Shown here piece by piece: positions 18,083 to 59,840 of a DNA stretch of 64,000 nucleotides; position 1 is the first letter of the stretch, and each line of letters opens with the position of its first letter. The notes beneath the pieces were generated by a model, which searched no databases, had not been told where the DNA came from, and saw only the letters and a program-made list of their open reading frames with translations. The position numbers and the translations under genes were made by a program. The DNA is from Heterodontus francisci (taxonomy: Eukaryota): the NCBI RefSeq assembly GCF_036365525.1, contig NW_027140825.1, positions 868,001 through 932,000 on the forward strand. The letters are read 5' to 3'.

Positions 18083-18403
18083 ATGGTTCTCCAGTCCCCG
18101 GCGGCCAACGCCCTGGTTCCTGGGGAGGAAACCACGTTCCACAGCAGAATTGGGCAGGGCAACATGACTGAGTGTTGTTTGGACTGGTACTTGCAGATTG
18201 GTGACTGCCTGGGATGGATCAGATGGAGTGCACTTTCTGCATCTAACAACAGGAAATGGATTGAAACCCAGCACGAGACTCAGGCCAACACTTTCCCTCT
18301 GTCGTTGAAAAGCTCCTGGGTCCAAGACAACAGCGCTTACTACTGCAGGGCTCACAAGGATACACACAGTGTAACTAGAATGGAAGGAAACAGGGCAAAA
18401 ACT
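18083..18403 (+). pseudogene. TRBV: TCR V pseudogene (xAH family), V 18083-18364 plus RSS 18365-18403
   Basis: MVLQSP..TTFHSRIG (Cys23->Ser)..DWYLQ..WI..NTFPLSLK..D..AYYCRAHKD; in-frame TAG immediately 5'; CACAGTG-23-GCAAAAACT. Confidence 0.82.
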
Positions 18404-29974: not shown

Positions 29975-32900
29975 TCACACTTCCACAGGCTCACAAGCCG
30001 AGCACTGAACGTCTTCTGGATCCAATTCGAGCTTCGTGTGTGGACACTGATCCTGGAACATGTGCTTCATCTGCATCGCAGAGAGGAGAAACGATGAGTA
30101 TTACTGCAAGGGGAGGAGTGAATAGAAATAGACAGAGAGCATACAGACAGAGATCGGGAGAGAGGGTGGGGACAAGACAGTGAGAGACAGGGTGAGGCAA
30201 AGATACTCAGATAGAGGGAGAGATGCAGAGGGAGGGTGGGAGAGCTACAGGGATTGTGACAGAGGTAGAGAAACAGAGAGCGTGAGAGCGAGAGGTCGTC
30301 AGAGATGCAGTGAGGGAGAGACAGACACAGACAGAAAGAAAGACAAAGAAAGAGAAATACAGAGTGGGTGAGCGAGGCAGAGAAAGAGACAGAGATAGAA
30401 AGGACATAAAGAGAGAATGGGGAGAGTGAGAGGGAAGATCAGAGAGAGGTTACCGTACAACGAGGAGGCCATTCATCCCCTCTAGTCTGTTACACAGGAA
30501 CAGGAGGAGGCCATTCAGCCCCTCGTTCGAGTTATTACACAGGAACAGGAGAAGGCCATTCAGCCCCCTCACCCCCTCTCCAGCCTTTCACACAGGCTCA
30601 GGAGGAAGCCCATTCAACCCCTCACAAGCCTGATCTGGGGGACCAGAAGATAAGCAGAGGGGGAATTAGAGCTGTTTAAATAATGACCTGGAGTTCCCAT
30701 TCAGTGAATACAGACAGTGAGAGGGAGGATCTGTTGCCGCCCGTGTTTCTCCTCAGTCCAGTGCAGTCTCTCACCCTCTCCACAACGATTCTCTTTGCAG
30801 TTTCATCATCCAGATCAGTCATTGAAGTGATCTTCACATTAATCCTCTTGTATTTGGTATCTAAACACAACAGTCACAACATCAACAGGTTGAACACACC
30901 CATAGTTTAGCACAGGGCACGGGACGTATTTCGAATGATCTCTCCTCTCTAATTTAAACTCTCTTTCCTCCAGTTTGTCAACCACTCGTTTGTTCATCTG
31001 TCTCTGTTATTCTCTCTATCTCAACTCGTCTTGTCTCTAATCTGCCCTCCCTGTGTTATCATCCTCTATCCTGCACTCTCTTCTCTGTTGCCTCTTGTTC
31101 CATCTCCCAAGATCATTTGCATTCCGTGTTTACTCCGGTCTCACTGCCCTTTTCTCTGTCTCTGTCGATCACTCTCACTCTCTCTCTCTCTCTGATGCTC
31201 TCTGTCCCTCTGACAAAGACAAAGACAGAGAGACAGACAAAGAGCATCTGTGAGAGAGACACAGAAAGAGAAAGTGAGAGTCAGAGAGACAGACAGGGAG
31301 ACAGAACATCAGAGAGAGTGGGAGACAGAGTGAAGTGAAAGAGGGAGCTGGAGAAACTGAGAGCCAGATAGGAGAGAGGCGGTTACAGAAATGAAATATA
31401 TTTATATATGCGTGTGAAAGGCAGATAAAGGAGAAACAGAGAGACAGAGATAAAACTGAGAGTTACAGAGAGAGGGATGTGAGATAGAAGCTCAAAGATA
31501 TTTCTGAAGGAATTTCTGAACGTTTACGTTTCTGTGTTTCCCAATGTATCCACTCATACTGAACACAAGTGACTGCAACTCTTGTCTGACAGCACAGACA
31601 AGGCAGAGAGAGAGAGTGAGAACGATGGGTTTTCCTACACAGAACGATCACACAGCTGTTTGGAGGCCCTCGGTCCTGATATATTTGTGCCAGACTGAGA
31701 CAGCAGGAGCGATTTAATATTCCTGAAATGTGGAGGATCTGAAACGTTCCCACCGTCATCAGAAACAGGCTGGGAGTCGGGAGGTTCCTCGGGAGTAGAC
31801 GGAATCCCCGAGTCTGAGAGGATCAAATAAAGACAAGAGGAATTTCACTGGGATTCAGAACGCTGGATGAGTGGACAGAAGTGTTTCAACACAGAACCTC
31901 CTCTCGGATGTAATCTAACTCCCTCGACACACTGAATCAATGTATACCAGCCTTAACTGAGGGGGGACACAAGATATCATCGGCTGCAGAATCAGTTACT
32001 ACTCCGACAAGGAAAGAAAATGAACGGAGAAAACTCAGGAGATTATCAAAGTGATCAGCGAAACGACAGGGGGAAAGTGGAGTCAGAGAACAACAGAGAG
32101 CAGGAGTGAGAGAAAAGGAGGGAAGGCGACAGGTGTGAGACAGAAAAGAGTAAGGGAGATCTGGAATGATTGTGAACAAGAGAGAGAAAAGAAAACAGCA
32201 CTGTAATGTTCCCCTTAATCAATACTGATACCCCTCCTCCTTTCCTTCCTCCCCTCTCTTTCCTGAACACCTTGTAGTCAGGAATATTCACTACCCAGTC
32301 CTGCCCCACTTAGAGCCAGGACTCTGTTATTGCCACAACATCATATTTCCACATGGCTATCTGCGCCTGCAGCTCAACAACCTTATTTACCACTGTCCAT
32401 GCATTCATATACACACACATTAAACTGAATTTACAGCTCATCACCTTTCCTCTTACACTGTCCCCGTCTCATACGATACTCTTATCGACTCCATTGTTAT
32501 CTGTCCCTCCTAATTCTCTGTGCATCTATGTTTTGCTCTCTAATAATGCTCAGACCACTGTTTTTCCTGATGTATATTAATGACATAGACTGGGGCGTAC
32601 AGGGCACACTTTCAAAATCTGCAGATGACACAAAACCTGGAAGTATTGTGAACTGTGAGGAGGTTATAGACAGGCTGGTGGGATGGGCAGACACTGGCAA
32701 ATGAAATTTATCACAGAGAATTGTGAAGTGATTCATTTTGGTCGGACGAACGAGAGGCAATATAAAATAAAGGATACAATTCTAAAGGAGATGCAGGGGC
32801 AGAGGGACCTGGGGGGACATGTGCACAAATCATTGAAGGTGGCAAGACAGGTCGAGAGAGCGGTCAATACTTAGGAAGGATGTTAAGGTATTCGAGAGGG

Positions 32901-35900
32901 TGCAGAGAAGATTTACCAGAATGGTTCCCGGGATGAGGGACGTCAGTGACATGAATAGATCGGAGAAGCTGGGGCTGTTCTCCCTGGAGAAGAGACGATT
33001 AAGACGAGATTTGAGCAAGATGTTCATAATCAAGAGGGAACTGGACAGAGTAGTCAGGGAAAAACTGTTCCTCTTGGTGGGAGGATCCAGAACGAGAGAG
33101 CAACGGTTTTAGGTGAGTGGTAAAAGTCACAACAGAGACAGGGAAACCTTTTCACACAGTGAGTGGTTAGGATCTGAAATGCACTGCATGAGAGTGTGCT
33201 GGAGGCAGGTTTAATTGAGGCTTTCAAAAGGGAATTGGATAATTGTCATGGCAGAAAAAATCTGCAGGGCGACAGGAAAATGGCAGGAGTGGGAGTAGGT
33301 GAGTTGCACTGCCAGAGAGCTGGCACGGTGAAGATGGGCTGAACAGAAACTTTCTGTGCCGTAACCAGTCTTTGATTCCATGATTCTGCGATGATAACCC
33401 CACAAAGCAGATACCTTAGCTTCTAGAGCCCGGTGGGTAGTGGATGAAACCTCAGTAGATTCTCTAGTCGATTGTTCCTCGGATTCCTGAGTTTGAGCAT
33501 CATGCTGCCCTCAGTCTCTATCACAGTCACCTCAGTCACTGCATTACACTCACCTCAGTCACTTTATCACATTCCCCTCAGTCACTGCATCACACTCCCC
33601 TCAGTCGTGTATCCCTCTCCCGTCAGTCGCTGTATCACACTCTCCTCAGTCGCTGTCTCGCACTCCCTTCAGCTCACTGTATCACAATCCCCTCAGTCAC
33701 TGCATTATATTCCCTTCAGTCACTGCATTCCACTCCCCTCAGACAGTGTCTCACACTCTACTCAGTCACTGTATCACACTCCCCCAGTCACTGTATCACA
33801 CACCCTTCAGTTCACCGTATCCCACTCCCCTCAGACAGTGTCTCACACTCCCCTCAGGCAGTGTATCACACTCCCCTCAGTCACTGTATCCCACTCCCCT
33901 CAGACAGTGTCTCACACTCCCCTCAGACACTGTAGCGCAGTCCCCTCAGTCACTGTATCACACTCCCTTCAGTCACTGTATCCCACTCCCCTCAGTCAGT
34001 GTATCACACTCCCCTCAGTCACTGCATCCCACACCCCTCAGTCACTGTACCACACTCCCTTCAGTCACTGTATCCCACTCCCCTCAGTCAGTGTATCACA
34101 CTCCCCTCCGTAACTGTATCACACTCCCCTCAGTCACTGTATCACACTCCCTGAGTGACTGTATCACACACCCCTCAGTCACTGTATCATGCTCCCCTCA
34201 GTCACTGTATCACACTCCCCTCACACACTGCATCACACTCCCCTCTGTCACTGTATCACACTTCCTCTGTCATTGTATCACACTACCCTCAGTCACTGTA
34301 TCACATCCCCCTCAGACTCTGTATCACACTACCCTCAGTCGCTGCATCACATCCCCTCAGTGACTGTATCATACTAACCTCAGACACTGTATCACACTCC
34401 CCTCAGTCACTGTATCACACTCCCTTCAGTCACTGTGTCCCACTCACCTCAGTCTCTGTATCACACTCCCCTCCGTAACTGTATCACACTCCCTGAGTCA
34501 CTGTATCACACTACCCTCAGTCGCTGCATCACACTACCCTCAGTCGCTGCATCACACTCCCCTCAGTGACTGCATCATACTACCCTCAGACACTGTATCA
34601 CACTCCCCTCAGTCACTGTATCACACTCCCTGAGTGACTGTATCACACCCCTCAGTCACTGTCTCATACTACCCTCAGACGCTGTATCCCACTCCCCTCA
34701 GTCACCTCATCCCACTCCTCTCAGTCTCTACATCTCACTCCCCTCGGTCACGGCATCCAACTCCCCTCAGTCTCTACATCGCACTCCCTTCAGTCTCTAC
34801 ATCCCATTCCCCTCATTCACGGCATCCAACTCCTCTCATTCACTACATCCCAATCCTCTCAGTCTCTCCATCCCACTCCTCTCAGTCACTGCATCCCTCT
34901 CCCCTCAATCAGTGCATCCCACTCCTCTCAGTCACTGCAACCCGCTCCCCTCAGCCACTGCATCCCACTCCTCTCAGGCACTGCATCCCACTCCTCTCAG
35001 GCACTGCATCCCACTCCCCTCAATCGTTGCATCCCACACCCCTCAATCAGTGCATTCCACTCCACTCAGTCTCTACATCCCACTTCCCACAATTACTGCA
35101 TCCCACTCCGCTCAATTACATCATCCCACTCCCCTCAGTCCTTTATAGCCACTCCAGGCGCTGCTTCACAAACCACTGACCACCTCCACGCGCGTATCCA
35201 CTGTCTCTCGAGATATGGACGCCCAAAAGAACTCCCCTCAGTCACTGCATCCCACTCCCCTCAGTCACTGCATCCCACTCCCCTCAATCACCACATCCCA
35301 CTCCCCTCAGTCACCCCATCCCACTCCCCTCAGCCACTGCATCCCACTCCTCTCAGTCACTGCATCCCACTCCCCTCAATCAGTGCATCCCACTCCCCTC
35401 AGTCATTGCATCCCACTCCCCTCAGTCACTGCATCCCACTCCCCTCAGTCACTGCATCCCACACCCCTCAATCAGTGCATTCCACTCCCCAGTCACTGCA
35501 TCCCAATCCCCTCAGCCTCTGCATCCCACTCCCTTCCGTCACTACATCCCACTCCCCTCAAGTACTGCATCCCACTGCCTTCAGTCCACTGCATCCCATT
35601 CCCCTCCGTCACTGCATCCCACTCCCCTCAGTCAGTGCATCCCACTCCTCTCAGTCACTACATCCCACTCCCCTCAGTCACTACATCCCACTCCCCTCAG
35701 TCTATGTATTCCACTCCCCTCAATTACATCATCCCACTCTCCTTAGTCACTCCATCCCAGTCCCCTCAGTCACCACATCCCTCTCCCCTCAGTCACCCCA
35801 TCCCACTCACCTCAGTCACTCCATCCCACTTCCCTCAGTCACCCCATCCCACTCCCCTCAGTCACTCCATCCAACTTCCCTCATTCACTCCCTTCCACTT

Positions 35901-38900
35901 CCCGCAGTCACTCCATCCCACTTCCCTCAGTAAGAGACTGGATGATCTCGAGGACTGATCTTCTATGGTGCAACATTGGGTGTGGAATCTGTTTCGAATG
36001 CACCCCACAAGGGGGATACCTGATGTTCCAGACACCGCTGGGGTAGACGATGATCCCCTAGTGGATTCTCGAGTTGTTTGTTCCTCGGGTTCCTCAGTTA
36101 CGACAGTCTCTGGATCTGTAATAAAGGAAGAGGGCAGAGTGGAGAAAACCCGAAGAGCTCGTTTATTTAGTTCTCTAGTCCAGACAGTGTCAGATTTTCA
36201 TCTTTATCAAACCCTCGAAGATCCTATCCAACTCCTCGTGAACATTGCTTCCTGGAGAGGGAGTGTGAGGTGCCCAGCACTGCAGTGGGGACCTGACGTG
36301 AGCCATGAACACTGCAGGGATCAGAGTGCCTGATAGACAGAGACAGCAGAGTCTGGTTCAGTTCCCTAGAGTTTCAGTGAAGTACACTTTGTGTTTCAGA
36401 TCCTTTATTCACTGTGTCCCTGACAATAAGGAGGGGAGTGAGTAAACCGTCTCATTTCTGTGGGTGACACGGGACATCCCAGAATCACCCTCTGGATGAT
36501 ATAGAAGCATCAATGTACCTGTACAATACGCAGCGCAATAAAACAAGGACTTCAACTCATAAACGAAGTAACTGCTGCAGTTTTTGATCTTTATCTCATG
36601 GACCTTGTCGCAGTGTTTTCTACCCCAGGATAAACAAACTGTCCGTGTTACTTCCCCCTGTCCCACGCTGGGATGGGAACCTGAAATGAGAGTTTATAAA
36701 TATTGAAGACTGTAACCCATGTGAACAGTGCTGTACAGTGAATGTAAATCTGATATTCTCAAGGCTGAAATTACCATTTAACCAGCCTGTAACATGTGTG
36801 GAGCAGTGAAAATCTGGGACAGCAGTCTCCGGAATCTTCCATCCACCAGAACTGAAACAAAGATTACAGAGTCAGTCCCTGAACTGATGGCAAATATTAA
36901 CTGTTAGAGAGACTGGTACCAGCAGATAGTACCAGAAACTGGGGGAAATCCCTTACTCTGCCCATATTGACTAGATTACCCTGAAATTGTTCCTTTACAT
37001 TACCTTTTAAATCTGTACCATCCTTGAGCAAGATTATCATCACACTTCTCCTGACCGGAGCACCCAGTGACATCACAATCGCTGCTCCTCCAGGGCTGGT
37101 CCAGGACTGTGTGATTTACACACGGGTCAGTGAGTGCAGAGTCTGTGACTGAGTGACAGAAAGATGTTTAATGTTAATATGTGACCTTACATCAGAACTG
37201 GGAAAAGTTCTAGTGACAAGTGAAACCGGGGAGAATGTGATGATAAATGGAAGGGATCACACTCCCCTCAGTTACCGTATCACACTCTCCTCAGTCACTG
37301 TACCCCACTCCCCTCAGTCACTGATTCACACTCCCCACAGTCACTGATTCACACTCCCCTGAGTCACTGCATGCCACTCCCCTCAGTCACTACACCCACT
37401 TCCCTCAATTACAGCATCCCACTCCCCTCACTCACTGCACCCACTCCCCTCAGTCAGTGCACCCACTCCCATCAGTCGCTACATCCCACTCCCCACAGTC
37501 ACTACATCCCACTCCCCTCAGTCACTACATCTCACTGCCCTCAGTCACTGCATCCCTCTCCCCTTAGTCGCTGCATCCCACTCCCCTCAATTACTGCATC
37601 CCACTCCCCTCAATCACTGCATCCCACTTCTCTATGTCACTGTACCCACTCCACCGAATCACTCTATACCATTCCCTTCAGTCACTGCACCTCACTCCCC
37701 GCTTCTCTACATCCTACTCCCCTCAGTTACCACATCACACTTAGTAGTCACTACATCCCACTTCCCTCAATTACAGCATCCCACTCCCCTTAGTCACTAC
37801 ATCCCACTCCCGTCAGTCACTGTATCCCACTCCCCTCAGTCTCTGTATCCCACTCCCCTCAGTCGCTACTTCCCACTCCCCTGTCACTACACCCCACTCT
37901 CCTCAGTCACTACACCCCACTCTCCTCAGTCACTACATCCCACTCCCCTCAGTCACTACATCCCACTCCCCTCAGTCACTACATCCCACTCCCCACATTC
38001 ACTGTATCCTACTCCACCTAGTCACCGCATCTCATTCGCTCAGTCACTGTATCCCACTCCCCTCAGTCTCTGTATCCCACTCCCCTCAGTCGCTACTTCC
38101 CACTCCGCTCAATCACTGCATCCCACACCCCTCAGTCACTACCTCCCACTCCCCTGTCACTCCACCCCACTCCCCTCAGTCACTACATCCCACTCCCCAC
38201 ATTCACTGTATCCTACTCCACCTAGTCACCGCATCTCATTCGCTCAGTCACTACATCCCACTCCCCTCAGTCTCTGCAGACCACTCCTCTCAGTCACTGC
38301 AGCCCACTGCTTACCGAGCTAGCCGTGTCCTAAAAGACAAAGCTGCTAGTCTGGGACTGCGGTAGGTGATGACAGAACCAAAAAGAGGAGAAAATATACT
38401 TGACTTCATCCTCACCAATCTGCCTGCCACATATCCATCTGTCCATGACAGTCTTGGTGGGAGTGACCACCGCACAGTCCTTGTGGAGCCAAAGTCCCAC
38501 CTTCACATTGAGGATACCGTCCATCGTGTTGTGTGGCACTATCACCATGCTAAATGGGATAGATTCAAACAAGTCTAGCAATACAACAATGGGCATCCAT
38601 GAGGTGCTGTGGGAACAACAGCAGCAGCAGAATTGTACTCAACTACAATCTGTAACCTCATGGTCCGGTATATCCCCCAATCGATCATGACCATCAAGCC
38701 AGGAGACCAAACTTGGTTCCATGAAGAGTGCAGGAGGGCATGCAAAGTGCAGCACAAGGCATACCTCAAAATGAGGTGTCAGCCTGGTGAAGCTACAACA
38801 CAGGACTATCTGCATGCCAAACAGCATAATTAGCATGCGATGGACAGAGCTAAGCGATCCCATAACCAACGGATCAAATGAGTTCCGAAGAAGGGTCGCT

Positions 38901-41900
38901 GACCCGAAACGTTAACTTTGCTTCTCTTTCCACAGATGCTGCCAGACCCGCTGAGTGATTCCAGTATTTCTTGTCCTGCCACATCCAGTCGTGAATGGCA
39001 GAAGACAATTAAACAACTAACTGGAGGAGGTGGCCCCACAAATATCCCCATCCTCAATGATCAGGGAGCCCAGCACATCAGTGCAAAAGATAAGGCTGAA
39101 GCATTTGCAAAAATCTTCAGCCAGAAGTGCTGAGTTGATGATCCATCTCGGCCTTCTCCTGCAATCCCCAGCATCACAGATGTCAGTCTTCAGCCAATTC
39201 GATTCACTCCGCTTGATATCAAGAAATGACTGAAGGCACTGGATACTGCAAAGGCTATGGGCCCTGACAATATCCCGGAAGTAGTACTGAAGACCTGTGC
39301 TCCAGAACTTGTTGCATCCTTAGCCAAGCTGTTCCAGTACAGCTACAACACTGGCATCTACCCTGCAATGTGGAAAACTGCCCAGGCATGTCCTGTGCAT
39401 AAAAAGCAGGACAAGTCAAAGCAGGGCAAGTTCAAGCCACCCAATTACCGTCCCATCAGTCTACTCTCTATCATCAGTAAAATGATGGAAGGTGTCGTTG
39501 ACAGTGCTATCAAGCGGCACTTACTCAGCAATTACCTGTTCAGTGATGGTCAGTTTGGGTTCCGCCGGGGTCACTCAGCTCCTGACCTCATTACAGTGTG
39601 GTTCAAACATTGACAAAAGAGCTGAACTCAAGAGGTGAGGTGAGAGTGACTGCCCTTCACATAGAGTCTGTCAGGATCCTGCTGCTGTGTCTGACACTCA
39701 CCAGAAAACCTGAATCTCCTCAATTGCAGACCTGACAGAATACTACCCAGACATGCCAGCCCTCTCTCCAGACAGTGAGCGCATGTTTCAGTTCCCTAGA
39801 GTTTTAGTGAAGAGTTCACTCTGTTTTACAGATCCTTTATTCACTGTGTCCCTTACAAAAAGGAGGGCAGTGAGTAAACTGTCTCATTCCCATGGGTGAC
39901 ACGGGACATCCCAGAATCACCCATCTGCACCATATACAAACAGCAATCTACCTGTACAATAAGCAGCGTTACAGTCGGGTGGAGGCTTCAACTCATAAAC
40001 AAAATAACTGCTGCAGTTTTTGATCTTTATTTCCTGGGTCCAGTGACAGCGATTTCCAGCCTTGTTAAAACAAACTGTCCTCGTTACTTCCCCCTGTCCC
40101 ACACTGGGATGGGAACCTGAAATGAGAGTTTATGAATATTGAAGAAAGTAACCCACGTGAACAGTGCTGGACAGTGAATGTAAATCTGATATTTTAAAGA
40201 CGGAAATTACCCTGTAACCAGCCTGTGGCACGTGTGGAGCAGTGAAAATCTGGGACAACAGTGTCCGGAATCTTCCATCCACCAGAACTGAAACAATAAT
40301 CACAGAGTCAGTCCCTGAACTGATGGTAAATATTAACTGTTAGAGAGACTGGTAACAACAGATAGTGCCAGAAACTGGGGGAAATCCATTACTCCTCCCT
40401 CATTAACTGATTTACCCAGAATTTGTTCCTTTACATTACCTTTTAAATCTGTACCATCCTTGAGCAAGATTATCATCACACTTCTCCTGACCGGAGCCCA
40501 CAGTGACATTACAATCGATGCTCCTCCAGGGCTGGTCCAGGACTGTGTGATTTACACACGGGTCAGTGAGTGTGGAGTCTGTGACTGAGTGACAGAAAGA
40601 TGTTTAATGTTAATATAAAGTACAGTTAATGTTACACAGCGCCTTGTACCCTCCCGAAATACCAATAATCTCAGTTTCACCCTCCGCCCTGGGCAAAGCC
40701 CCGCAGATTAAAGATGGAAAATGTCCTCCTTCTCTAAACTGGGTTTCCATCTGTCTCCCAGCTCAGCCTCCCCCTCTAACTCACTGCTCACAGACAGTCC
40801 TCCCTATTCTAGATTAACCACCAGCTCTCAGGTAACAGAAAGCAGTAAATATCTCAGCTTCACTTCATCCCAGCAGGAAAGATGTAAAGTGGAGGAGGAG
40901 CGAGAACTGCCAGGTGGAGCACAAGCGACCCAGTGTGACTGGTGGGTCCTGCAGAGGGAACGTGTAGTCTCAAAACCAACAACAACCTGCGTTTATGTAC
41001 TGCCTTTGATGTAATAAAATGTCCCAAAGCACTTCATCGGTGTGTTACCATCCCGAACTGACACTGATCCACAGAAGCAGCTGGTCGGGCAGGTGGCCAA
41101 ATGCTATGTCAAATAGGTAGGTTTTAAGGAGTGTCTGAAAGGAGGAAAGAGAGGTGGAGAGACGGAGAAGTTGAGGGAGAGAATTCCATAGCGTTAAGCC
41201 TCGGCAGGTGAAGGCACAGCTGCCAATGGTGGAAGGGATTCGAATCGGGAATACTCAAGAGGCCTCAATTAGAGGAGCGCAGAGATCTCCGAGGGTTGTG
41301 GGGCTGGAGATGATTTCAGCGGTAGGGAACGGCGAGGTGATAGAAGGATCTGGAAACGATTGTGAGAATATTGAAATCCAGGCCTTGCTGAACCGGGAGC
41401 CAGTGTAGGTCAGTGAGCACGGAGATGAAAGGTGAACTGGACTTGGGCAGTATCATACTGGATGACCAAAATGTACAGAAGGTGGAATGTGAGAGATCAG
41501 CCAGGAGATCTTTGGAATAGTCAAGTCTAGAGGTACCAAAGTACTGCTAAAGGGTTTGAGCAGCAGAGAAGTTGCAAGAGCCAAGTCAGGAATACTGTTT
41601 CTGATCATCCTTCTCGAATTGTCGGCAGTCTTTGACACAATTCACCACACTATCCATCGCCAACACCTCTCCTTCCATGTCCAGCTGGGTGGAACTGCTC
41701 TGGCCTATTTCCACTCAACCCAGTCTAGTCTCAGCCAGAGAATCTCCTGCAGTGTCTTCCCTACCCACTCCAGCACTGCTACCTCTAGCGTACCCCGAGA
41801 ATCTATCTTGTCCCTCTCCAATTTCTCATCAGCTTCTGACTGTGCCCAGCTTCCTTCCCTGTCGCCTCCTCATCACAAGGACATCCAATTACAACCTCCG

Positions 41901-42549
41901 TAATATCCACCATCACAGATTTTGCCTCAGCCAATCCTCTACCAAAAACCCTCTACCTTCTGGAGAATCAAATCTTCTAATCCACTCCTGGCCAGCCTCC
42001 CAGCTTCCACTTTCCAGAAGTCAGGTCTCCTCCAACACACTGCTGTTGCATGTTATCTTGCAGAAAGTTTAAGTCATACATCAGCCCTGTGCTCTCTGAC
42101 CCACATTGGTTCACAGCTGCAAACGCCTTTGATGTACAACTTCCATCTTCCTGTTCAAATTCTTTCATGACCTCTCCCGCCCTCTCCCACCACATTTCTG
42201 TAATCTTCACCAACTCTCTGTTTCTCTGACCCAAGCCTCCTGTATAAATTCCCTCCACTCCCTTTCCTCCAGCAGTGTCTGATGTGGCTTCAAGATGTCT
42301 AGCCTCCTAAACCTTTCTGCCTCTCCACCTCCGTCTGCTCTTTTAAACTAACAGTCAGCCCTCCAATCATCTCCTTCCCTGCCGTGTGTCAGACATTTCT
42401 TCAATCAGATTTCTGTGGAACATCTTGGGAGATTTTTCTATGTAACGGTTTGAATAAACACAGCTTGTTCTAGTTGTACTGGGGGTGAACTTTGTCGAGA
42501 ATGAAAGTTACTCACTCAGGTAACCCAGAATGATCAGCCGAGTCCACAT
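29975..42549 (-). CDS. GP2/uromodulin-like secreted protein with two tandem D8C (D10C) domains and no ZP domain; ~398 aa; proposed coding exons 42516-42549, 40440-40584, 40211-40287, 39952-40116, 37004-37148, 36775-36851, 36519-36680, 36020-36115, 31948-32001, 31754-31813, 30775-30860, 29975-30070
   Basis: Hand-spliced GT/AG exons with compatible phases give MWTRLIILGYL-ITDSTLT-DPCVNHTVLDQPWRS..CDDNLAQGWYRFKSSGGWKIP..HCST..TGWL.GSHPSVGQGEVTRTVC...C....IKIKNCSSYFVYELK...C.AAYCT (x2), then stalk DPETVVTEEPEEQTTREST.., then DTKYKRINVKITSMTDLDDETAKRIVVERMKHMFQ..CSACEPVEV*. D8C exons are firm; the 3' exons are less certain. Confidence 0.78.
32560..33385 (+). mobile_element. CR1-like LINE fragment (intronic)
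   Basis: ADDTK..WQMKF...CEVIHFGR; QRRFTRMVPGM..LGLFSLEKRRLR. Confidence 0.85.
33415..33505 (-). pseudogene. Decayed duplicate of the stalk exon
   Basis: QESEEQSTRESTEVSSTT resembles EEPEEQTTRESTRGSSST (36020-36115); its 5' side abuts the minisatellite and its end is out of phase. Confidence 0.55.
33510..35930. repeat. ~23-bp minisatellite (CTCCCCTCAGTCACTGYATCMCA), ~2.4 kb
   Basis: Tandem units visible; source of the many spurious S/H/P-rich ORFs. Confidence 0.95.
36519..37148 (-). CDS. D8C domain 2 (three exons)
   Basis: Same exon sizes and phases (145/77/162 nt) and same motifs as domain 1. Confidence 0.9.
37258..38310. repeat. Second array of the ~23-bp minisatellite
   Basis: Same unit, in the intron between the two D8C domains. 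Confidence 0.95.
38320..39662 (+). mobile_element. CR1/L2-clade LINE ORF2 fragment (endonuclease end to RT start), interrupted at ~38880-38975 by a Penelope-like piece
   Basis: RGENILDFILTN..SDH; GPDNIP..LK.CAPEL..; NYRPISLLSIISK.ME; QFGFRRGHS. Confidence 0.9.
39952..40584 (-). CDS. D8C domain 1 (three exons)
   Basis: DPCVNHT..GWYRF / GGWKIPDT..C..GWLQG / HPSVGQGEVTRTVCF..CHW..IKIKNC..YFVYEL.PPPDCNAAYCT. Confidence 0.9.
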
Positions 42550-47345: not shown

Positions 47346-47821
47346 ATGAGTTAAAAAACAGAAAATAACCTCAGCAGGGGAAAAACTCCAAAATAAAACA
47401 ACAACCTCAACGTAAAAAAAATTCAACAACTTAAGCAGGGAAGGAAACAAGAAGTACAACAAAAACCTCAGCAGGGAAAACACCAACAAAAACAACAACT
47501 ACCTCATCAGGAGAACAGCGCCAACAAATTCAACAACAGATCAGCAGGAGATTCAAACACCAACAAGTTCAACAACCTCAGTTGGAGAAAAACACCAGCA
47601 AATACAACAACAAATACAACAACAACTTCAAAATTATACCAACAAATGCAACAACAACTACTGGCAGCCAATGGGAGAGAGAGGGGCGTGGGTTTCCCAT
47701 CAGGGAGGGGGGTGTTGTGCAAACCTGAATCACTTGCTTGAATCTTCATGTGGCTTCTCACAAGACTCAACTCTCTTCTTTCCACTGATTTTCCAATTGC
47801 AGGATAAGCTTCCAGTGGAAG

Positions 47822-48050
47822 ATGCATCTGTTACTGAGTCTCATGGTCTTATTTCAAAATAATGTTTTACTCCCCAGCTGTACCAAGTGTGATTTCAGAG
47901 GGGACGGTGGGGTGTTTCAGCGCCAAGTGACCGACTGACGCCCAGTTCAACCTGGAGTCCTCCAGCCTGTGGGAGAATCACTCGGCCATGCATTGCTGTG
48001 CCTGGAGTCTGCACAGTGACTCAGAGAGATGGAGCAGTTCAACAAAAACA
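47822..48050 (+). pseudogene. TRBV: CAWS-family V pseudogene with intron and 5' half of V deleted; RSS 48012-48050 intact
   Basis: Leader ...TTTCAAA fused to ATGTTTTACTCC (MFYS); TGA in V frame; ends HCCAWSL then CACAGTG-23-ACAAAAACA. Confidence 0.85.
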
Positions 48051-50451
48051 CCAACAGAAACACCTGTTTCAGATAAAAGCCTGCAGCTCTGTATCCTGTT
48101 GGGTTTACCTACTGCAGTGTGAACATGTCTTCGACATGAAGAAGACACAGATAGATGTTCAGGGATGATACGAGAAGTGAGAGGTTATAATGATCAGGAA
48201 AAGACTGAACAGACTGGGGCTCTTTTCTCTAGAAAAGAGAAGGCTGAGGAGTGACCTGATCGAGATATTTAAGATTATGAAAGGGGTCTTGATCAGATAA
48301 ATGTAGAGAAAAATGTTTGCATTTGCGGGTGAGACCAGTAAAAACGGGGCAGGTGCGTCAATATAATACAGTCACCAATACATCCAATTGGAAATTTGAG
48401 AGAAACATCTTCACCCAGAGAGTGGGGAGAATGTGGAACTCAGTACCACAGGATGAAAGGAATAGGGAAGATGTATTTAAGCTGGGGGGGAGGGGGGCAG
48501 TTGGATAGGACATGAGGGAGAGAGGAACAGAAGGAGATGTGGCTGGGGGCGAGATGAAGAGGGCGTGGAACGACGTTCGTGTGGACCAAAAAGGTCGGCA
48601 AGGACGTGTCGGGCTGTAAATTCATTGCAGCTGGAGCGAAGAGCAGGAACACCAACACTGTGGGACTAGTCAGTGGAGCTGGGGACTGACTCCTGGGTGA
48701 GGAGCAGCTTTTCTTTGTAATCTTTATCTAAACCTGTCACAATCTTGTACACCTCTATCAGGTCTCCACGCAATCTCAGTTTCTCCAGGGAGAACAACCC
48801 CAGCTTCTCCAACCTAACCTTGTAACTAAAATCCTCCATTCCTGGAACCATTCTGGTAAATCTCCTCTGCACCCTCTCAAGGAACCTCACCTCCTTCCTA
48901 AAGTGTGGTGACCAGAACTGGATGCAATTTTGCAGTTGTGGCCTAACCAGAGCTTTATAAAGGTTCAGCATAACTTCCCAGTTTTTGCACTCAATGGCTC
49001 TATTTATGAAGCCCAAGATCTCGCATGTTTTGCTATTCCCATATTCTTTGCTACTGTTTCGAAGTACGGCCACTGCTGTAATGTAGGAACAGTGGCAGCC
49101 ACTTTCTAAAAGGCAAGATCCCATGAACAGACAACGTGCAGATCCTGCTGAAGTTGTTGTTGACTTTGTTGGTGTTTTCTCCCGCTGAAGTTGTTGACTT
49201 TGTTGCTGTTTTTCCTGTTGAGTTTGTTGTTGAATTTGTTGGCATTTTTCCTGTTGAGTTTGTTGTTGAACTTGGAGGTGTTTTTCTCCTGTTAAAGTTG
49301 TTGTTGAATTTGTTGGTATTTTCCCATTTGAATTTGTTGTTGAACTTGTTGGTGCTTTTCCTGTTGAAGTTGTTGTTGAATTTGTTGGTACTTTTTCCTC
49401 TTTAAGTTGTTGGATTTATTTGTGCTATTTCCTGTTGAGGTTGTTGTTGAATTTGTTTGTGTCTTTCTTGTTGAGGTTGTTATTGAATTTATTGTTGTTT
49501 TTCTTTCCTCCTGTTGAAGTTATTGTTCAATTTGTTCGTATTTTTATTCTGCTGCCGTTGTTTTTGTATTTTGTGGGGGGGGGGGGGGTTTCTCCTCCAG
49601 GGGAACAGCAGACTTCACCAATATTGATTTTTTAAAAAGGTTAACATTGTTCAGTAAAATTGTTTCTTGGCTCTCTCTCTTCATGTCTGTTTCTCTCTCT
49701 CTGTTGCTCTTGTTACCTTTCCTCTCTCACACATTCTCATTCTCTCTCTTTATCACTGTCTCTCCTTCCTTCTCTCATTTCCTCTCTGCTCTGTTGCTCT
49801 TTCTGTCTCTCACACACGCACCCAATCTCATTCTCTCTCTTTATCTCACTCTCTTCTTTCCTTCCCCTCTCTTTCCCGCCTCTCATTTCCTTGCTTATTC
49901 TTGCTGTCTGTCTCCATTTCACTCTCACACACACTCACTCTTATTCTCTCTCTCTCTCTCATTAATTCTTACAATCTCCTCTCATTTTCAGCCTCTGTGT
50001 CGCTCTGTCTCTGTCTCTCCCTGTCTTTCTGTACACCTCCTATTGCCTCATTCTCTCTATCTGTCACTCGTTCTCTCAATCTCTCTCTCTCTCTCTCTCT
50101 TTCGAACTAATTTTCCCTGAATCATTCCATCTCTCAGTGGCTTTGTTGATCAGTCTGTCTCTCTCTCTCTGTCTTTGCCTCACTCTACCTCTCCCTTGCT
50201 CCCTCTCAGCTGTCCTCTCTCTCTCACTCGTTCTTTATCTCTCCCTATGTGGGTTTCCCTGGGATGGCCTCTGCCTGTCCAGCTCTGTTGCCCTCTAAGA
50301 TTTTGTTGGTATGATGTGGCCAGAGGGTGCTCTGTATGGAATGCAATGCCAGCGACAGTGGTTATTCAACATTGTCTGCAGTTTCCACAGTAGCGGGGCG
50401 GTTTGATCACATTGCTTATAACGAGCCTCCTCCTCTGAAACGAATCTCACA

Positions 50452-50778
50452 GATCCAGCCTCACAGCTCCAGCGACCCGGGTTCAATTCTGGGTACTGCC
50501 TGTGTGGAGTTTGCAAGTTCTCCCTGTGTCTGCGTGGGTTTCCTCCGGGTGCTCCGGTTTCCTCCCACATGCCAAAGACTTGCTGGTTGATAGGTTAATT
50601 GGCCATTATATATTTGCCCCTTGTATAGGTAGGTGGTAGGGGAATATAGGGACAGGTGGGAATGTGGTAGGAATATGGAATTAGTATCGGATTCGTATAA
50701 ATGGGTGGTTGATGGTCGGCACAGACTCGGTGGGCAGAAGGGCCTGTTTCAGTGCTGTTTCTCTAAACTAAAGCAAAC
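50452..50778 (+). mobile_element. HE1/V-SINE family element
   Basis: GACCCGGGTTCAATT B-box and V-domain GTGTGGAGTTTGCA..GTGTCTGCGTGGGTTTCCTCCGGGTGCTCCGGTTTCCTCCCACA; absent at this site in cassettes A and C. Confidence 0.85.
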
Positions 50779-51330
50779 TAGTTAGAGATCTGCTGACAGA
50801 AGATACTGAAGTGTTATTCGGAGATACTGGTCATGATTCCTTGCCTTTCCATATTTCTGCTTCCCACCTTTAAGACAGGAAACACCACTATCCCCATTTG
50901 TTACCATTGTTGATGAAATTAATGTTCGTAATAGTTACTTTATGCATTGTTATACATCATCAGCTCGTCAACCAAACTGAAATAATTTACTGTTCCTTGA
51001 TCTGAACAGCAGTTAGTATTCTTTTAACAGAGTGTCATCCTTAAACATTACCAATTTTCCTCTTTCTCAGATGCAGACTGAGCTGGTTTGTGTTCATCCT
51101 TCCGAGTTTGGCGCATTTATAGTTTTATCAATGTAATAAATCTGATTTATAATTGGGCTTAACCTGTCGAGCAAATATAAGTGTGAAGGCAGCAGCGTGA
51201 CTGGAGGAAATTATTTTGTCTCCTTCTTAATCCCTTTCTTCTGCTTTTGCCTCTGTCCCTCCCTGTAACCCTCTATCGTTCTCTCCCCATTGATCTGCCA
51301 TCCTGTGTGAAGAATCTTGTCAGATGTTAG

Positions 51331-51645
51331 ATGGTTCTCCAGTCCCCGGCGGCCAACGCCCTGGTTCCTGGGGAGGAAACCACGTTCCACAGCAGTATTG
51401 GGCAGGGCAACATGACTGGTATGGACTGGTACTTGCAGATTGGTGACTGCCTGGAATGGATTAGATCGAGTGTACTTTCTGCATCTAAATGCAGGAAAAG
51501 GATTGAAACCCAGCACGAGACTCAAGCCAACACTTTGACTCTGTCCTTGAAAAGCTCCCGTGCACAAGACAACATCACTTACTACTGCGCGGCTCACAAG
51601 TACACACACAGTGTAACTAGAATGCAAGGAAACACGGCATAAACT
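51331..51645 (+). pseudogene. TRBV: TCR V pseudogene (xAH family), V 51331-51606 plus RSS 51607-51645
   Basis: Cys23->Ser (TTFHSSIG), upstream TAG, DWYLQ..LEWI..TYYCAAHKY; CACAGTG-23-GCATAAACT. Confidence 0.82.
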
Positions 51646-52668
51646 CGGGAATGATGTAATACACCTTCCTCCAGTCTTTGGGGGTATGGTAGTATAGCTG
51701 TTATGTTACTGGGACTAGTAATCCAGAGGCCTCGACTGAATAATCCAGAGCACAGGTGTTCAAATCCCACCACAGCTTCTGGGGGAATCTAACTAAACAA
51801 ACATCACCTTAAATATTCACTCCCACCACCACCGACGCACAGTGGAAGCAGTATGTACCAGCTGCAAAAAGCACTGCAGTAATGCACCAAGGCTCCTTCA
51901 ACAGCACCTTCCAAACCCGCGGCCTCTACCAACTAGATGGACAAGGGCAGCAGAATCATGGGGACACCACCGCCTGCAAGGTCCCCTCCAAGTCACACAC
52001 CATCGTGACTTGGAACTATATCACCGTTCCTTCATTGTCGCTGGGTCAAAATCCTGAAACTCCCTTCCTAACAGCACTGTGGGTGTACCGACACTACATG
52101 GACTGCAGTGGTTCACGAAGGCAGCTCACCACCACCTTCTCAAGGGGCAATTAGGGATGGACAATAAATGCTGACCTCAACCAGCATCGCCCAAAATCCC
52201 ATGAATGAAATAAAAAATAGAAAATAACAGCACCAAAAATACATCAACAACCTCAACATGCAAAAACCAAGATGAACAACAATTTAAACAGGGAAGAAAA
52301 CAACAAGTACAACAAAAACCTCAGCAGGGAAAACACCAACCAACACAACAACTACCTCAGCAGGAGAACAAGGCCAACAAATTCAACAACAGATCAGCAG
52401 GAGATTCAAACACCAACAAATTCAACAACCTCAGTCGGAGAAAAACACCAGCAAATACAACAACAACTTCAGCAGCAGAATGATACCAACAAATGCAACA
52501 GCAACTACTGGCAGCCAATGGTAGAGAGAGGGGCGTGGGTTCCCCATCAGGGAGGGAGGTGTTGTGCAAACCTGAATCACTTGCTTGAGTCTACATGTGG
52601 CTCCTCACAAGACTCAACTCTCTTCTCTCCACTGATTTCCCAATTGCAGGATAAGCTTCCAGTGGAAG

Positions 52669-53199
52669 ATGTATCTGTTACTGAGTCTCATGGTCTTATT
52701 TCAAAGTAAGGGATCTTTCTCACCACCACCACACACCCCCATTGTTTTTATCAACAGCTCTCTTTCTTATTTTCTTTCTCTCTATCTTTCTCTTCTTCCT
52801 TCATTCTTCACATCCCAGATTGTCCATGTTCACTGACTTTCTTCTCTCCTGGTCTCTTCCCCCAGGCGCAATCTCCGCGAGGGTCCGCCAGACTCCCACC
52901 GCCATCTCCAGATTTCCTGGGGAGGGAGTGGGACTGGAGTGCCGTGTGGAGGGTGAGAGTTGCGGTTCCATGTTCTGGTACAGACAGGACCGGGGAAGGA
53001 GCCGCGGCTGATGTTTTACTCCGCAGCTACACCAGGTGTGAACTCAGAGGGGACGGTGGAGGGTTTCAGCGCCAAACGACCGACTGGCTCCCAGTTCAAC
53101 CTGGAGTCCACCAGCCTGCAGGAGAATCACTCGGCCCTGTATTTCTGTGCCTGGAGTCAGCACAGTGACTCAGAGAGACGGAGCAGTTCAACAAAAACA
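52669..53199 (+). pseudogene. TRBV: CAWS-family V with 1-bp frameshift at ~52990; leader 52669-52705, V 52866-53160, RSS 53161-53199
   Basis: CAGGACCGGGGAAG here vs CAGGACCCGGGGAAG at 14298-14312; otherwise intact. Confidence 0.85.
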
Positions 53200-53830
53200 C
53201 CAAGAGAAACACCTGTTACAGATAAAAGCCTGCAGCTCTGTATCCTGTTGGGTTTACCTGTTGCAGTGTGAACATGTCTTTGACATGATGAAGACACAGG
53301 TTGCATTGAACGTCGGGGAAAAGTTGCACGGAAATATCTTCAAGGATGATAGGAGAACTGGGAGGATATAATGATCAGAAAAAGACTGAACAGATTGGGC
53401 TGTTATCGCTTGAAAAGAGAAGGCTCAGGAGTGCCCTGATAGAGCTCTTTAAGATTATGAAAGGGTTTTTGATCAGATAAATGTAGAGAAGTTTTTTTTC
53501 ATTTGCGGGTGAGACCAGAAAAAGGGGTGGGGCATCAATATAAGACAGTCAGCCATAAATCCAATTGGGAATTCGGGAGAAACATCTTCACCCAGAGAGT
53601 GGGGAGAATGTGGAACTCATTATCACAGGCTGAGGGGAATAGGGAAGATATATTTAAGCTGAGGGGATGCTGGATAGGACATGAGGGAGAGAGGAACAGA
53701 AGGATATGTGGCTGGGGGCGCGATGAAGAGGGCGTGGAACAACGTTCGTGTGGACCAAAAAGACCAGCATGGATGTATCGGGACGAATGGCCTGTTGCTG
53801 TGCTGTAAATTCCCTGCAGCTGGAGCGAGG

Positions 53831-54267
53831 AGCAGGAGCACAAACAATGTGGGACTAGTCAGTGGAGCTGGGGGACTGACTCCTGGGTGAGTAGCAGGAA
53901 CACCAACACTGTGGGACTTGTCAGTGGAGCTGGGGGACTGACTCCTGGGTGAGGAGCAGGAACACCAACACTGTGGGACTAGTCAGTGGAGCTGGGGGAC
54001 TGACTCCTGGGTGAGGAGCAGGAACACCAACACTGTGAGACTAGTCAGTGCAGCTGAGGGACTGACGCCTGGGTGAGTAGCAGGAACACCAACACTGTGG
54101 GACTAGTCAGTGGAGCTGGGGGACTGACTCCTGGGTGAGTAGCAGGAACACCAACACTGTGGGACTAGTCAGTGGAGCTGGGGGACTGACGCCTGGGTGA
54201 GTAGCAGGAACACCAACACTGTGGGACCAGTCAGTGGAGCTGGGGGACTGACTCCTGGGTGAGTAGC
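53831..54267. repeat. 62-bp tandem repeat, ~7 units
   Basis: AGCAGGAACACCAACACTGTGGGACTAGTCAGTGGAGCTGGGGGACTGACTCCTGGGTGAGK; single copy in cassettes A and B. Confidence 0.95.
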
Positions 54268-55134
54268 AGCTTTTCTTTGTGATCTTTATCTAAACCTGTC
54301 ACAATCTTGTACACCTCTATCAAGTCTCCACGCAATCTCAGTTTCTCCAGGGAGAATAACACCAGTTTCTCCAACGTAACCTTGTAACTAAAATCCTCCA
54401 TTCCTGGAACTATTCTGGTAAATCTCCTCTGCATCCACTCTATGACCCTCACCTCCTTCATAAAATGTGATGACCAGAACTGGAAGCAATTCTCCAGTTG
54501 TGGCCTAACTAGAGCATTATAAAGGTTCAGCATAACTTACTAGTTTTTGTAGGCTGTGCGTCAATTTATGAATCCCAAGATCTCGCATTTTTTGCTAATC
54601 TCATAGGTTTTTCTATTCCCATATTCTTTGCTACTGTTTCGAAGTACGGCCCCTGATGTAATGTAGGAAGAGTGGAAGCCAGTTTCTACAAGGCAAGATC
54701 CCAGGAACAGACAACCTGCTGAAGTTGTTGTTGAGTTTGTTGGTGTTTTTCCTGTTGAGGTGGTTGTTGAATTTGTTGGTGTTTTTCCTGCTGAGGTTGT
54801 TGTTCAATTTTATTGGTGTTTTTCTCCTGCTGAAGTTGTTGCTAACTTTGTTGATGTTTTTCTCCTGCTAAAGCTGTTGTTGGCATTGTTGGTGTTTTTC
54901 CTGTTGAAAGCGTTGTTGAATTTGATGGTGTTTTTCCTGTTGAAGTTGTTGTTGAATTTGCTGGTGTTTTTATCCTGCTGCAGTTGTTGTTGAATTTGTT
55001 GGTGTTTTTCTCCTGCTGAAGTTGTTTTTGTATTTGTTGGTGTTATGTCCTGTTGAAGTTGTTGTTGAATTTGTTGATGTTTTTCCTGTAATAAGTTGTT
55101 GTTAAACTTGTTGGTGTTTTTCCTGTTGAAGTTG

Positions 55135-55456
55135 TTTAGTTCAGAGTTTAGTTTAGAGATACAGCACTGAAACAGGCCCTTCGGCCTACCATGTCTGTGC
55201 CAACCACCAACCACCAATTTATACTAATCCAACACTAATTCCATATTCCTACCACATCCCAACCTGTCCCTGTATTTCCCTGCCACCTACCTTTACCACG
55301 GGCAATGTATAATGGCATGTGGGAGGAAACCGGAGCACCCACAGGAAACCCACGCAGACACAGGGAGAACTTGCAAACTCCACACAGGCAGAATTGAACC
55401 CGGGTCGCTGGAGCTATGAGGCTGCGGTGCTAACAACTGGGCCACTGTGTCGCCCT
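55135..55456 (-). mobile_element. HE1/V-SINE family element
   Basis: Reverse-complement homolog of 50452-50778, inserted in the TTG satellite. Confidence 0.85.
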
Positions 55457-56954
55457 TTTCATTGGTGCTTTTATTTTTCCTGTTGAAGTTATTGTTGAAT
55501 TTGTTAGTGTTTTTTTGTGCTGCAGTTGTTTTTGTATTTTTGGGGTGTTTTCTCCTCCAGGGGGACAGCAGAGGGCGAGCTAGCACCAGGAAACACATCA
55601 GACTTCACCAATATTGATTAAAAAAATCATCGTTTACATTGTTCTGTAAAATTGTTTCCTTTCTCTCTCTCTTCATGCCTGTTTCTCTGTCTCTGTTGCT
55701 CTTGTTATTTTTCCTCTCTCACACACACTCACTCTCATTCTCTTTCTTTATCCCTGTCTCTCTTTCCTTCTCTCATTTCCTCTCAGCTCTGTTGCTTTTT
55801 CTGTCTCTCACACGCACACCCATTCTCATTCTCTCTCTTTATCTCACTCTCTTCTTTCTTTCCCCTCTCTTTCTCGCCTCTCATTTCCTCGCTTACTCTT
55901 GCTGTCTGTCTCTATTTCTCTCTCAAACGCACTCAGTCTCATTCTGTCTCTCTGTCTCTAATTAATTCTGCCTATCTCCTCTCATTTCCTGTCTCTGTTT
56001 CGCTCTGTCTCTGTCTCTCCCTGTCTGTCTCTACACCTCCTATTGCCTCATTCTCTCTATCTGTCACTCGTTCTCTCAATCTCTCTCTCTCTCTCTCTTT
56101 CGAACTAATTTTCCCTGAATCATTCCATCTCTCAGTGGCTTTGTTGATCAGTCTGTCTCTCTCTCTCTCTCTGTCTTTGCCTCACTCTACCTCTCCCTTG
56201 CTCCCTCCCAGTTGTTCTCTCTCTCTCATTCTCTCTTTATTTCTCCCCATGTGGGGTTCCCCGGGATGGCCTCTCCCTGTCCGGCTCTGTTCCCCTCTAA
56301 GGTTTTGTTGGTATGATGTGGTCAGAGGGTGCTCTGCAAGGAATACAACGCCAGTGACACTGGTTATTTGACCTATCTGCAGTTTCCACAGCAGCAGGGG
56401 CGGTTTGATCACACTGCTTATAACGAGCCTCCTCCTCTGAAAAGAATCTCAATGTAGTTTGAGATCTGCTTTCCATATTCCTGCTTTCCAGTTTTAAGAC
56501 AGGAAGCACCACTGTCCCCATTTGGTCCCATTGTTGATGAAATTAATGTTTGTAATAGTTACTTTTTGCATTGCTATACATAATCTCCTCGTCAACCAAA
56601 CTGAAATAATTTACTGTTCCTTGATGTGAACAGCAGTTAGGATTATTCTGACAGAGTATCATCATTAAACATTACCAATTTTCTTTTTTCTCAGATACAG
56701 ACTGAGCTGGTTTGTGTTCATCCTTCCGACTTTGGTGCTTTTATAGTTTTATCAATGTAATAAATCTGATTTATAATTGGGCTTAACCTGTGGAGCAAAT
56801 ATAAGTGTGAATGTAGCAGCGTGACTGGAGAAGAATAGTTTGTCTCCTTCTTATTCCCTCTCTTCTGCCTTTGCCTCTGTCCCTCCCTGTAACCCTGTAT
56901 CATTCTCTCCCCATTGATCGGCCATCCTGTGTGAAGAATCTTGTTAGATGTTAG

Positions 56955-57275
56955 ATGGTTCTCCAGTCCCCAGCGGTCAACGCCCTGGTTCCCGTGGAGG
57001 AACCCATGATCCACAGAAGCATTGGGCAGGGCAACATGACTGAGTGTTGTTTGGACTGGTACTTGCAGATTGGTGACTGCCTGGAATGGATCAGATAGAG
57101 TGTACTTTCTGCATCAAACTACAGGAAAAGGATTGAAACCCAGCACAAGACTCAGGCCAACACTTTCACTCTGTCCTTGAAAAGCTCCTGGCTCCAAGAC
57201 AACAGCATTTACTACTGCGGGGCTCACTAGGATACACACAGTGCAACTAGAATGCAAGGAAACACGGCAAAAACT
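56955..57275 (+). pseudogene. TRBV: TCR V pseudogene (xAH family), V 56955-57236 plus RSS 57237-57275
   Basis: Cys23->Arg and two in-frame TAG (WIR*, GAH*); CACAGTG-23-GCAAAAACT. Confidence 0.85.
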
Positions 57276-58169
57276 TGGGAATTGTGTAATACACCTTACC
57301 CCAGTCTCTGGGGGTATGGTAGCATTGCTGTTATGTTACTGGGACTAGTAATCCTGAGGCTTCGACCGAATGATCCAGAGCACAAGAGTTCAAATCCCAC
57401 CACAGCAGCTGGGGGAATCTAACTAAACAAACACCACCTTAAATATTCACTCCCTCCGCCACCGACGCACAGTGGCAGCAGTGTGTACCAGCTACACAAT
57501 GCACTGCAGTAACGCACCAAGGCTCCTTCGACAGCACCTTCCAAACCCGCGACCTCAATCTCGAAGGCCAAGTGCAGCAAATGCATGGGAACACCACCAC
57601 CTGCAAGCTCCCCTCCAAGTCACACACCATCCTGACTTGGAACTGTTTCGGCCGTTCCTTCACTGTCGCTGGGTCAAAATCCTGGAACTCCCTTCCTAAC
57701 AGCACTGTGGGTGTACCCACCTCACATGGACTGCAGCGGTTCAAGAAGGCAGCTCACCACCACCTTCTCAAGGGCGATTAGGGATGGGCAATAATTGCTG
57801 GCCTGGCCAGTGACTCCCACATCCAATGAAATAATAAAAGAATGTTTGCAGATGTCACTAAAATCTGTGCACGGGTTAAGACAGTAGAGGGGTCCTGTGG
57901 AATCCAAAGTGATTTACCTGTGGCAGGGGATTAGGCCACACAATGGCAACTGGCATTAAATTTAGGCAAATGTTGTGTTATGTACGTTGATGGGGCCAGA
58001 AATGAATCCAAGTATCACTTGCAGGGAAGACACTGAAAGAGGTCAGCAGAGAATTATTCTGGTCAGATCATTGAAGGGTGAAGACTGATGTAAAGAGCCT
58101 GCAGTTAAAGTTAACGGGTTTTTAGATTGTGTTAATGGAATCATCATGAATCAAATGACTAGATTTTAG

Positions 58170-59540: not shown

Positions 59541-59840
59541 ATGGTCAGCACGTTCCTGGCCAATCAAAAAATAAGGCAATATTCCATGGAAGGAAAGGTG
59601 GGAATGTTGGGAAGGGAAGAGGGAAAGTCGGGCTAAGGGGCTTGCAGCAATCTGCATAAATAACAGCAATGTTGCCGAGGGAAGTGCTCCTCATTTGTTC
59701 ACTCTGCTGACAGGCGTGGTCGAGGTACAGGATGGGCGGCCAATCGTTCCACTCTCTTCATCACAACCGGTGGCATTTCCATTTACCAGGCGCTGGCTTG
59801 TTGCTCAGTAAGGGCTGCCTCTCTGCTTCTGAGAAGGACG

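Follow-up and report, generated by a model that had tools for sequence, protein, structure and literature searches.

A shark gene with two D10C repeats of probably mosaic ancestry and a variable predicted surface hairpin

Relation to known D10C proteins

The D10C domain is a rigid scaffold that presents a glycan decoy. In human GP2 and uromodulin (UMOD), the glycan of the decoy module (PDB 7P6R/7P6S/7P6T and 7Q3N) is bound by FimH at GP2 N65 or UMOD N275 (PMC8930769). The gene described here is located on the minus strand of a DNA stretch of 64,000 nucleotides from the shark Heterodontus francisci (contig NW_027140825.1, positions 868,001 to 932,000; the whole stretch is called the window and positions are counted from its first letter). 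Its product contains two tandem D10C domains, i.e., the N repeat and the last repeat, each coded by three exons (A, B and C). The D10C fold and a sequon of the N65 type are common to the human module and the shark gene. The latter differs by: (i) its two D10C in tandem; (ii) the absence of ZP, EGF, the N275 sequon and cysteines C3 and C6; (iii) an additional cysteine pair in the loop of exon A. The beta-hairpin that precedes D10C in GP2 has no match in the shark protein.

The omcin cluster of zebrafish (PMC11415648) is also an expanded fish family with a variable number of tandem D10C. Its member omc5 protects against bacterial infection and carries EGF IV, ZP and a predicted glycosylphosphatidylinositol (GPI) anchor, whereas the shark gene has neither EGF nor ZP; the terms «shark», «positive selection» and «gene conversion» do not occur in that paper. 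Since it has no ZP, no EGF and altered disulfides, the shark gene is placed outside both GP2/uromodulin proper and the omcins. Elasmobranch models of the same architecture bear automatic names only («uncharacterized», «uromodulin-like», «GP2-like» or «OIT3-like»), the nearest one being P0003 (source name: Heterodontus francisci protein). In the literature covered, to which subscription papers do not belong, no paper on the evolution or function of the shark family was found; the topics searched included a link between shark uromodulin and T-cell receptor (TCR) beta, elasmobranch GP2-like expansion, D8C/D10C selection and shark TRB organisation.

By analogy, the shark protein would putatively work like a soluble, non-filamentous GP2/uromodulin or omcin. 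With two D10C heads carrying N65-type sites, a stalk and no ZP filament, it is likely to be a soluble mucosal decoy or binding protein.

Ancestry of the two repeats

The reading that we regard as fairly probable combines mosaic repeats, with conversion in the bullhead-shark lineage, and a family-wide variable predicted surface hairpin, probably under selection for differences of binding surface. The last third of the repeats would come from two repeat types already distinct across three shark orders. In the bullhead-shark lineage, gene conversion would have restored the similarity of the remainder. The diversity of the hairpin would reflect selection for differing binding surfaces on neighbouring domains.

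The repeats lie in a duplicated unit whose copies are 88.2% identical over 833 columns. An earlier note on this DNA had given about 850 bp and about 90% intron identity; the unit is slightly shorter, while the second value holds, since 47 of 449 aligned non-coding sites differ (10.5%), i.e., 18/152 in intron A-B, 9/94 in intron B-C, 20/165 in the 165 nt downstream and 0/38 in the 38 nt upstream (6 nt of which are exon). Patch 1 (FNKAGNRCHWTQE in the N repeat, LSWGRKHCDKVHE in the last one) has 17 differences over 39 nt, 15 of them replacement and 2 silent. Eleven of its 13 residues are changed, and Cys and Glu are retained through synonymous codons. When the 93 mismatches were shuffled over 827 sites, 17 per 39-nt window were obtained in 0 of 5000 shuffles. 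Patch 2 reads PPPDCN in the N repeat and SLFYC plus a one-codon gap in the last one. Between the two patches, IKIKNCSSYFVYELK has an unchanged protein with 2 silent changes. The recount of patch 1 and the comparison of patch 2 both agree with the earlier note. Intron A-B has a cluster of its own (about 36950-36990 vs 40385-40425, with 11 differences over 39 nt, p=0.06), at which DNA contigs of paralogues also end.

The patch was also considered as an assembly chimera with another paralogue, and several close Heterodontus paralogues do exist (P0003, P0004/5, P0006, P0010 and P0011; 312 DNA contigs of run X2 map to the unit). This candidate was rejected, and its probability is practically nil: P0003, which has the same architecture as the window gene and differs from it at 8 of 360 residues, holds both patch-1 sequences in the same order. 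In addition, contigs were taken from runs X5 and X6, which are guessed, not recorded, to be RNA (coverage in exon bins only; one sample, also that of X2). They have joints at 36115/36519, 36678/36773 and 36851/37004. A single one extends over exons B and C as far as the stalk, with 1 difference; in others, an N-type exon C is spliced onto exon A of the following repeat. These joints match the exon model, which shows that a near-identical copy of the gene undergoes the predicted splicing and excludes an assembly chimera at the patch.

The shark and ray family was collected by a search with P0003, which gave 151 proteins; family counts rest on the matches listed (120 of 151). This set comprises 99 shark and ray proteins with a domain match, from 19 species. 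Their 153 domains covering exon C and the window's two make 155 rows, 147 of which are distinct. Among the matches listed, 13 rows are of a «last-repeat» type, characterized by Ser or Ala opening patch 2, a one-residue gap and His-Glu ending patch 1. All 13 are the final D10C of their model (two models have one D10C only), though the type is not universal among final repeats. Six of the 13 come from Mustelus, Rhincodon, Hemiscyllium and Chiloscyllium, and SLFYC-AAYCT of whale shark P0019 is identical to the window's last repeat. These four genera belong to two orders other than that of bullhead sharks. Owing to this sharing across orders, patch 2 and three of the 11 differences in patch 1 (positions 85, 95 and 96) are old markers of type, not recent changes: as judged from these sequences, they arose before the orders separated. 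Bullhead shark fossils reach back 180 Ma (PMC7614348), and the repeat types of the window's two copies are likely more than 180 million years old.

It is thus very improbable that the unit was duplicated recently (about 10% divergence) and that both patches then underwent a burst of positive selection. Such a history would suit the non-synonymous divergence (pN) of patch 1, i.e., 0.47 vs 0.105 at non-coding sites (p=9e-7), and the fact that, of the 11 differences in patch 1, about 8 look Heterodontus-specific and fall mostly on the last repeat. It is largely refuted by the gap of patch 2 and the V/I-H-E end of patch 1, which recur in two other orders (6 last repeats, 4 species). Moreover, the silent sites of exon C are highly diverged too, and a rate continuing at 6.5-fold predicts, as a rough estimate, about 10 changes against P0003, where none is seen.

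Identity between repeats is reversed along the domain. Over residues 1-84 the window repeats are 89% identical to each other, and 79-81% identical to the repeat at the same position in P0004 and 56-71% to those of other orders. Over residues 85-123 they are 61% identical to each other, while the last repeat reaches 68-74% with the last repeats of Rhincodon, Mustelus, Hemiscyllium and Chiloscyllium. Trees were calculated separately for both segments. For residues 85-123 (34 rows, 11 of them of the last-repeat type), the 11 rows stand on one side of a branch (97/89) and the union of the window's two repeats is rejected by the approximately unbiased (AU) test (p-AU 0.0003). For residues 1-84, the group is recovered in 0% of 200 bootstraps. 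Silent divergence also depends on the region: 2/48 in exons A and B vs 8/31 in exon C without patch 2 (p=0.011), the latter differing from the non-coding sites as well (p=0.017). A run of 75 identical nt crosses the acceptor of exon A (p=0.009), and the downstream intron has 7 differences in its first 30 nt and 13 in the next 135 (p=0.058). Adjacent segments of the unit have therefore different genealogies, as indicated by the reversal of identity, the AU rejection in the last third only and the heterogeneity of silent sites.

Conversion, which the earlier note had named as a possible cause, fits these mosaic genealogies. It has likely made the greater part of the unit uniform, with the exception of an older block that runs from patch 1 to shortly after exon C. 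The same mosaic would result if the unit had been duplicated recently and its exon C had then been converted from an old paralogue. In bovine CEACAM32 the pattern is similar, conversion affecting introns and leader, not the domain-coding exons, which is ascribed to selection (PMC7042247). There it takes place between paralogous genes; in the shark case it would involve tandem domains of one gene, with a boundary inside an exon. Since introns and exons A-B share a younger ancestor than exon C, intron identity cannot be used for dating the patch. The yardstick of about 90% intron identity fails accordingly: silent sites give 2/48 vs 8/31, and the end of exon C sorts by position of the repeat across three shark orders. 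When silent sites of the same exon replace introns as the reference, the apparent 6.5-fold excess falls to about 2.3, which illustrates that intron identity between tandem repeats is no valid clock for dN.

Exon A loop, exon B loop and hairpin are shared in differing combinations by P0003, P0004, P0006, P0010 and P0011. This patchwork suggests exchange of segments between genes.

Fold and variability of the predicted hairpin

The assignment to D10C relies on PF23283, which matches exon C alone (E 2.4e-9 and 7.6e-6) and is the sole family entry of P0003, and on phmmer to GP2 (E 1e-24). The earlier note had spoken of D8C repeats: D8C_UMOD does match exon C, but each repeat is a complete D10C coded by three exons. 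The AlphaFold prediction for P0003 has a mean predicted local distance difference test (pLDDT) value of 76, with about 88-95 over the patches. It matches the GP2 decoy module with a Foldseek E of 2.5e-14 and about 40% identity, and can be superposed on three of four GP2 chains at 1.2-1.9 A. In this model patch 1 spans the two-strand hairpins 95-104/107-119 and 224-233/236-248, and is predicted to be a surface hairpin.

Patch 1 aligns to GP2 139-151 and UMOD AHWSGHCCLWDAS, i.e., the betaE/loop/betaF region. The peptide AHWSGHCCL is presumably derived from uromodulin. It binds free light chains (PMC5507933), and the light-chain epitope of uromodulin is the betaE/loop/betaF region, made rigid through C5-C7 and C3-C6 (PMC8930769). 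By analogy, contact with a protein has a precedent for the betaE/betaF loop, whereas contact with a pathogen has none.

The ten-cysteine pattern of D10C (C1-C8, C2-C9, C3-C6, C4-C10, C5-C7) is incomplete, both window repeats being devoid of C3 and C6. Among the matches listed, C3 occurs in 1 of 142 and C6 in 1 of 147 shark and ray domains. Shark domains have a different cysteine pair, at positions 19/24 of the exon A loop. Loss of C3 and C6 would free the hairpin, under selection and under drift alike. The NHT sequon equivalent to GP2 N65 is found in both window repeats and in 53 of 113 family domains, while the equivalent of the UMOD N275 sequon is absent from both window repeats. In exon A of the N repeat (40440-40584), Gly replaces the shark-specific loop Cys at domain position 24, as in P0003. 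This repeat therefore has 9 cysteines and likely a free thiol.

The hairpin is a true variable loop across the shark and ray family. It is more divergent than the rest of the domain in 45 of 48 pairs of adjacent repeats. When pairs with the type split are set aside, this is still true of 36 of 39 (11 species), though the pairs are partly dependent on one another. Over 24 close pairs (10 species), no 13-residue window diverges more than patch 1 (39% vs 14.5%), the next loop reaching 26%. Five last-type repeats of Heterodontus differ at 48/130 positions of patch 1 (37%), 8/150 of the following strand (5%) and 33/320 of the stalk exon (10%); the values of two other loops are 32-33%. Lys replaces the normally conserved W94 and N90 in the window's last repeat.

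Selection on the hairpin is likely on these comparisons. The interpretation of the earlier note is partly supported: patch 1 is hypervariable and is the most divergent 13-residue window family-wide, but a dN/dS above 1 is not significant against the silent sites of exon C. The dN of patch 1 lies above intronic divergence, a contrast that comes mostly from the mixed ages within the unit.

Several results weigh against the combination of mosaic ancestry, conversion and selection. As regards ancestry, support for the last-type group in the trees is partly circular because the group was picked by a motif in the same 39 columns, and a Heterodontus clade is not rejected for residues 85-123 (p-AU 0.077). 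The homogenisation of introns between repeats is a probable reading of protein comparisons across orders. The cluster of intron A-B indicates that patchiness is not exclusive to coding DNA. For residues 1-84, the AU test does not reject a last-repeat clade (p-AU 0.17), which, together with the slow substitution rates of sharks, would suit an entirely old unit with slowly evolving introns and no conversion. That explanation is nevertheless improbable: the 89% identity of residues 1-84 between repeats is well above their identity to repeats of other orders (56-74%) and, within one unit, some exons have six times the silent divergence of others.

As regards selection, replacement in patch 1 against silent sites of exon C is 15/32 vs 8/31 (omega about 2.3, one-sided p=0.07, the window being chosen post hoc), and, in residues 1-84, the sites that vary in the family do not exceed the neutral divergence of their surroundings (p=0.27-0.47). 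Introns of paralogues differ by roughly 11-16%, which predicts 24-33% residue change at unconstrained codons, near the 37% seen. Patch 1 has 0 changes over 26 residues against P0003, and RNA-like contigs match the last exon C at every base, hence no sign of ongoing rapid change. These figures (the non-significant omega, the near-neutral 37% and the unchanged patch), as well as the lack of C3 and C6 in nearly all shark and ray domains, would also be expected if the mosaic history were the same and the hairpin, without its C3-C6 disulfide, were loosely constrained and drifted nearly neutrally with no special ligand role. Such an explanation is rather unlikely, though it has to be taken seriously. 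Against it, the hairpin remains distinct in 10 species between repeats that are otherwise close, and its divergence is 3.6 times that of the low-complexity stalk exon, which lies 400 nt from it. Moreover, the window's last repeat has Lys at two normally conserved positions, W94 and N90.

If selection for differing surfaces on mosaic repeats is correct, a varying protein surface would be a second mode of recognition for the D10C fold, and a candidate diversified family of mucosal defence would be added to cartilaginous fish. A wider proposal, which is tentative and on the doubtful side, is that of an expanded, ZP-less and secreted D10C family in sharks and rays. Its betaE/betaF hairpin, free of the C3-C6 disulfide, would act as a variable binding loop similar to a complementarity-determining region, diversified by selection and reshuffled between domains and between paralogues by conversion of segments, with at least the window gene lying in a TCR-beta variable (V) array; this would be germline-diversified innate recognition based on the uromodulin fold.

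Gene model and surrounding V segments

The gene consists of ten exons between 42549 and 29975. All internal junctions have AG/GT, and the frame of 360 residues is intact (Table 1). The protein comprises a signal-like start, two D10C domains, an acidic Ser/Thr stalk and a short C-terminal domain. Its secretion is likely as judged from the sequence. No ZP module, EGF or GPI anchor is found in the 360-residue open reading frame (ORF), which stops after the stalk and a 55-residue beta-alpha-beta domain.

Table 1. Positions of the exons, duplicated copies and patches in the window
Feature	Position	Strand	Support or remark
First coding exon, signal-peptide-like start (MWTRLIILGYL)	42516..42549	-	GT donor; one change vs P0003 start
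N-terminal D10C repeat, exon A	40440..40584	-	AG/GT, intact ORF, GP2 alignment; NHT sequon equivalent to GP2 N65
N-terminal repeat, exon B	40211..40287	-	AG/GT junctions, intact ORF
N-terminal repeat, exon C	39952..40116	-	Pfam D8C_UMOD E=2.4e-9; RNA contigs join N-type exon C to next exon A
Last D10C repeat, exon A	37004..37148	-	RNA joint 36851/37004
Last repeat, exon B	36775..36851	-	RNA joints
Last repeat, exon C, old «last-repeat» type	36519..36680	-	Tree 97/89; RNA contigs with 0 differences over 158-160 nt
Acidic Ser/Thr stalk exon	36020..36115	-	RNA joint 36115/36519
C-terminal domain, first exon	30775..30860	-	Loose end of X6 RNA contig connects stalk exon to 30775..30860
Last coding exon with stop	29975..30070	-	Closes 360-residue ORF, 8 differences from P0003
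Duplicated unit, copy with last repeat	36354..37180		88.2% to 39784-40616
Duplicated unit, copy with N repeat	39784..40616		88.2% to 36354-37180
Patch 1, N repeat (FNKAGNRCHWTQE)	40031..40069	-	Predicted beta-hairpin tip; identical in P0003
Patch 1, last repeat (LSWGRKHCDKVHE)	36595..36633	-	13-codon comparison with N repeat
Patch 2, N repeat (PPPDCN)	39968..39985	-	General family type
Patch 2, last repeat (SLFYC and one-codon gap)	36535..36549	-	Identical in whale shark P0019

The C-terminal beta-alpha-beta domain (29975-30860) is common to many family members, and the window copy has a third cysteine. This domain gave no Foldseek match and no usable Atlas match (best feature score 0.78). Two further elements lie between the stalk and this domain: (i) at 31752-31814, an intact-looking exon of 63 nt, used in the P0004/P0006 models and skipped in the RNA contig seen; (ii) at 33436-33500, a remnant of a stalk repeat without clear acceptor, at the edge of a minisatellite.

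At least ten V segments with 23-bp recombination signals are found on both sides of the gene (1100-18400 and 47800-60500), in both orientations and several of them broken. The best single-domain matches of the segment at about 3000 are TCR-beta chains. The segment at 14190 is less clear, having mostly matched multi-domain antibody and TCR constructs. A pattern match at 26470 was considered as an eleventh segment and rejected, as it is not a V. The mammalian TRB locus contains trypsinogen genes, a comparable embedding. The V cassettes also form segmental duplications at 85-95% identity, i.e., 1-2157 vs 6152-8317 and 13734-16048 vs 47862-53897.

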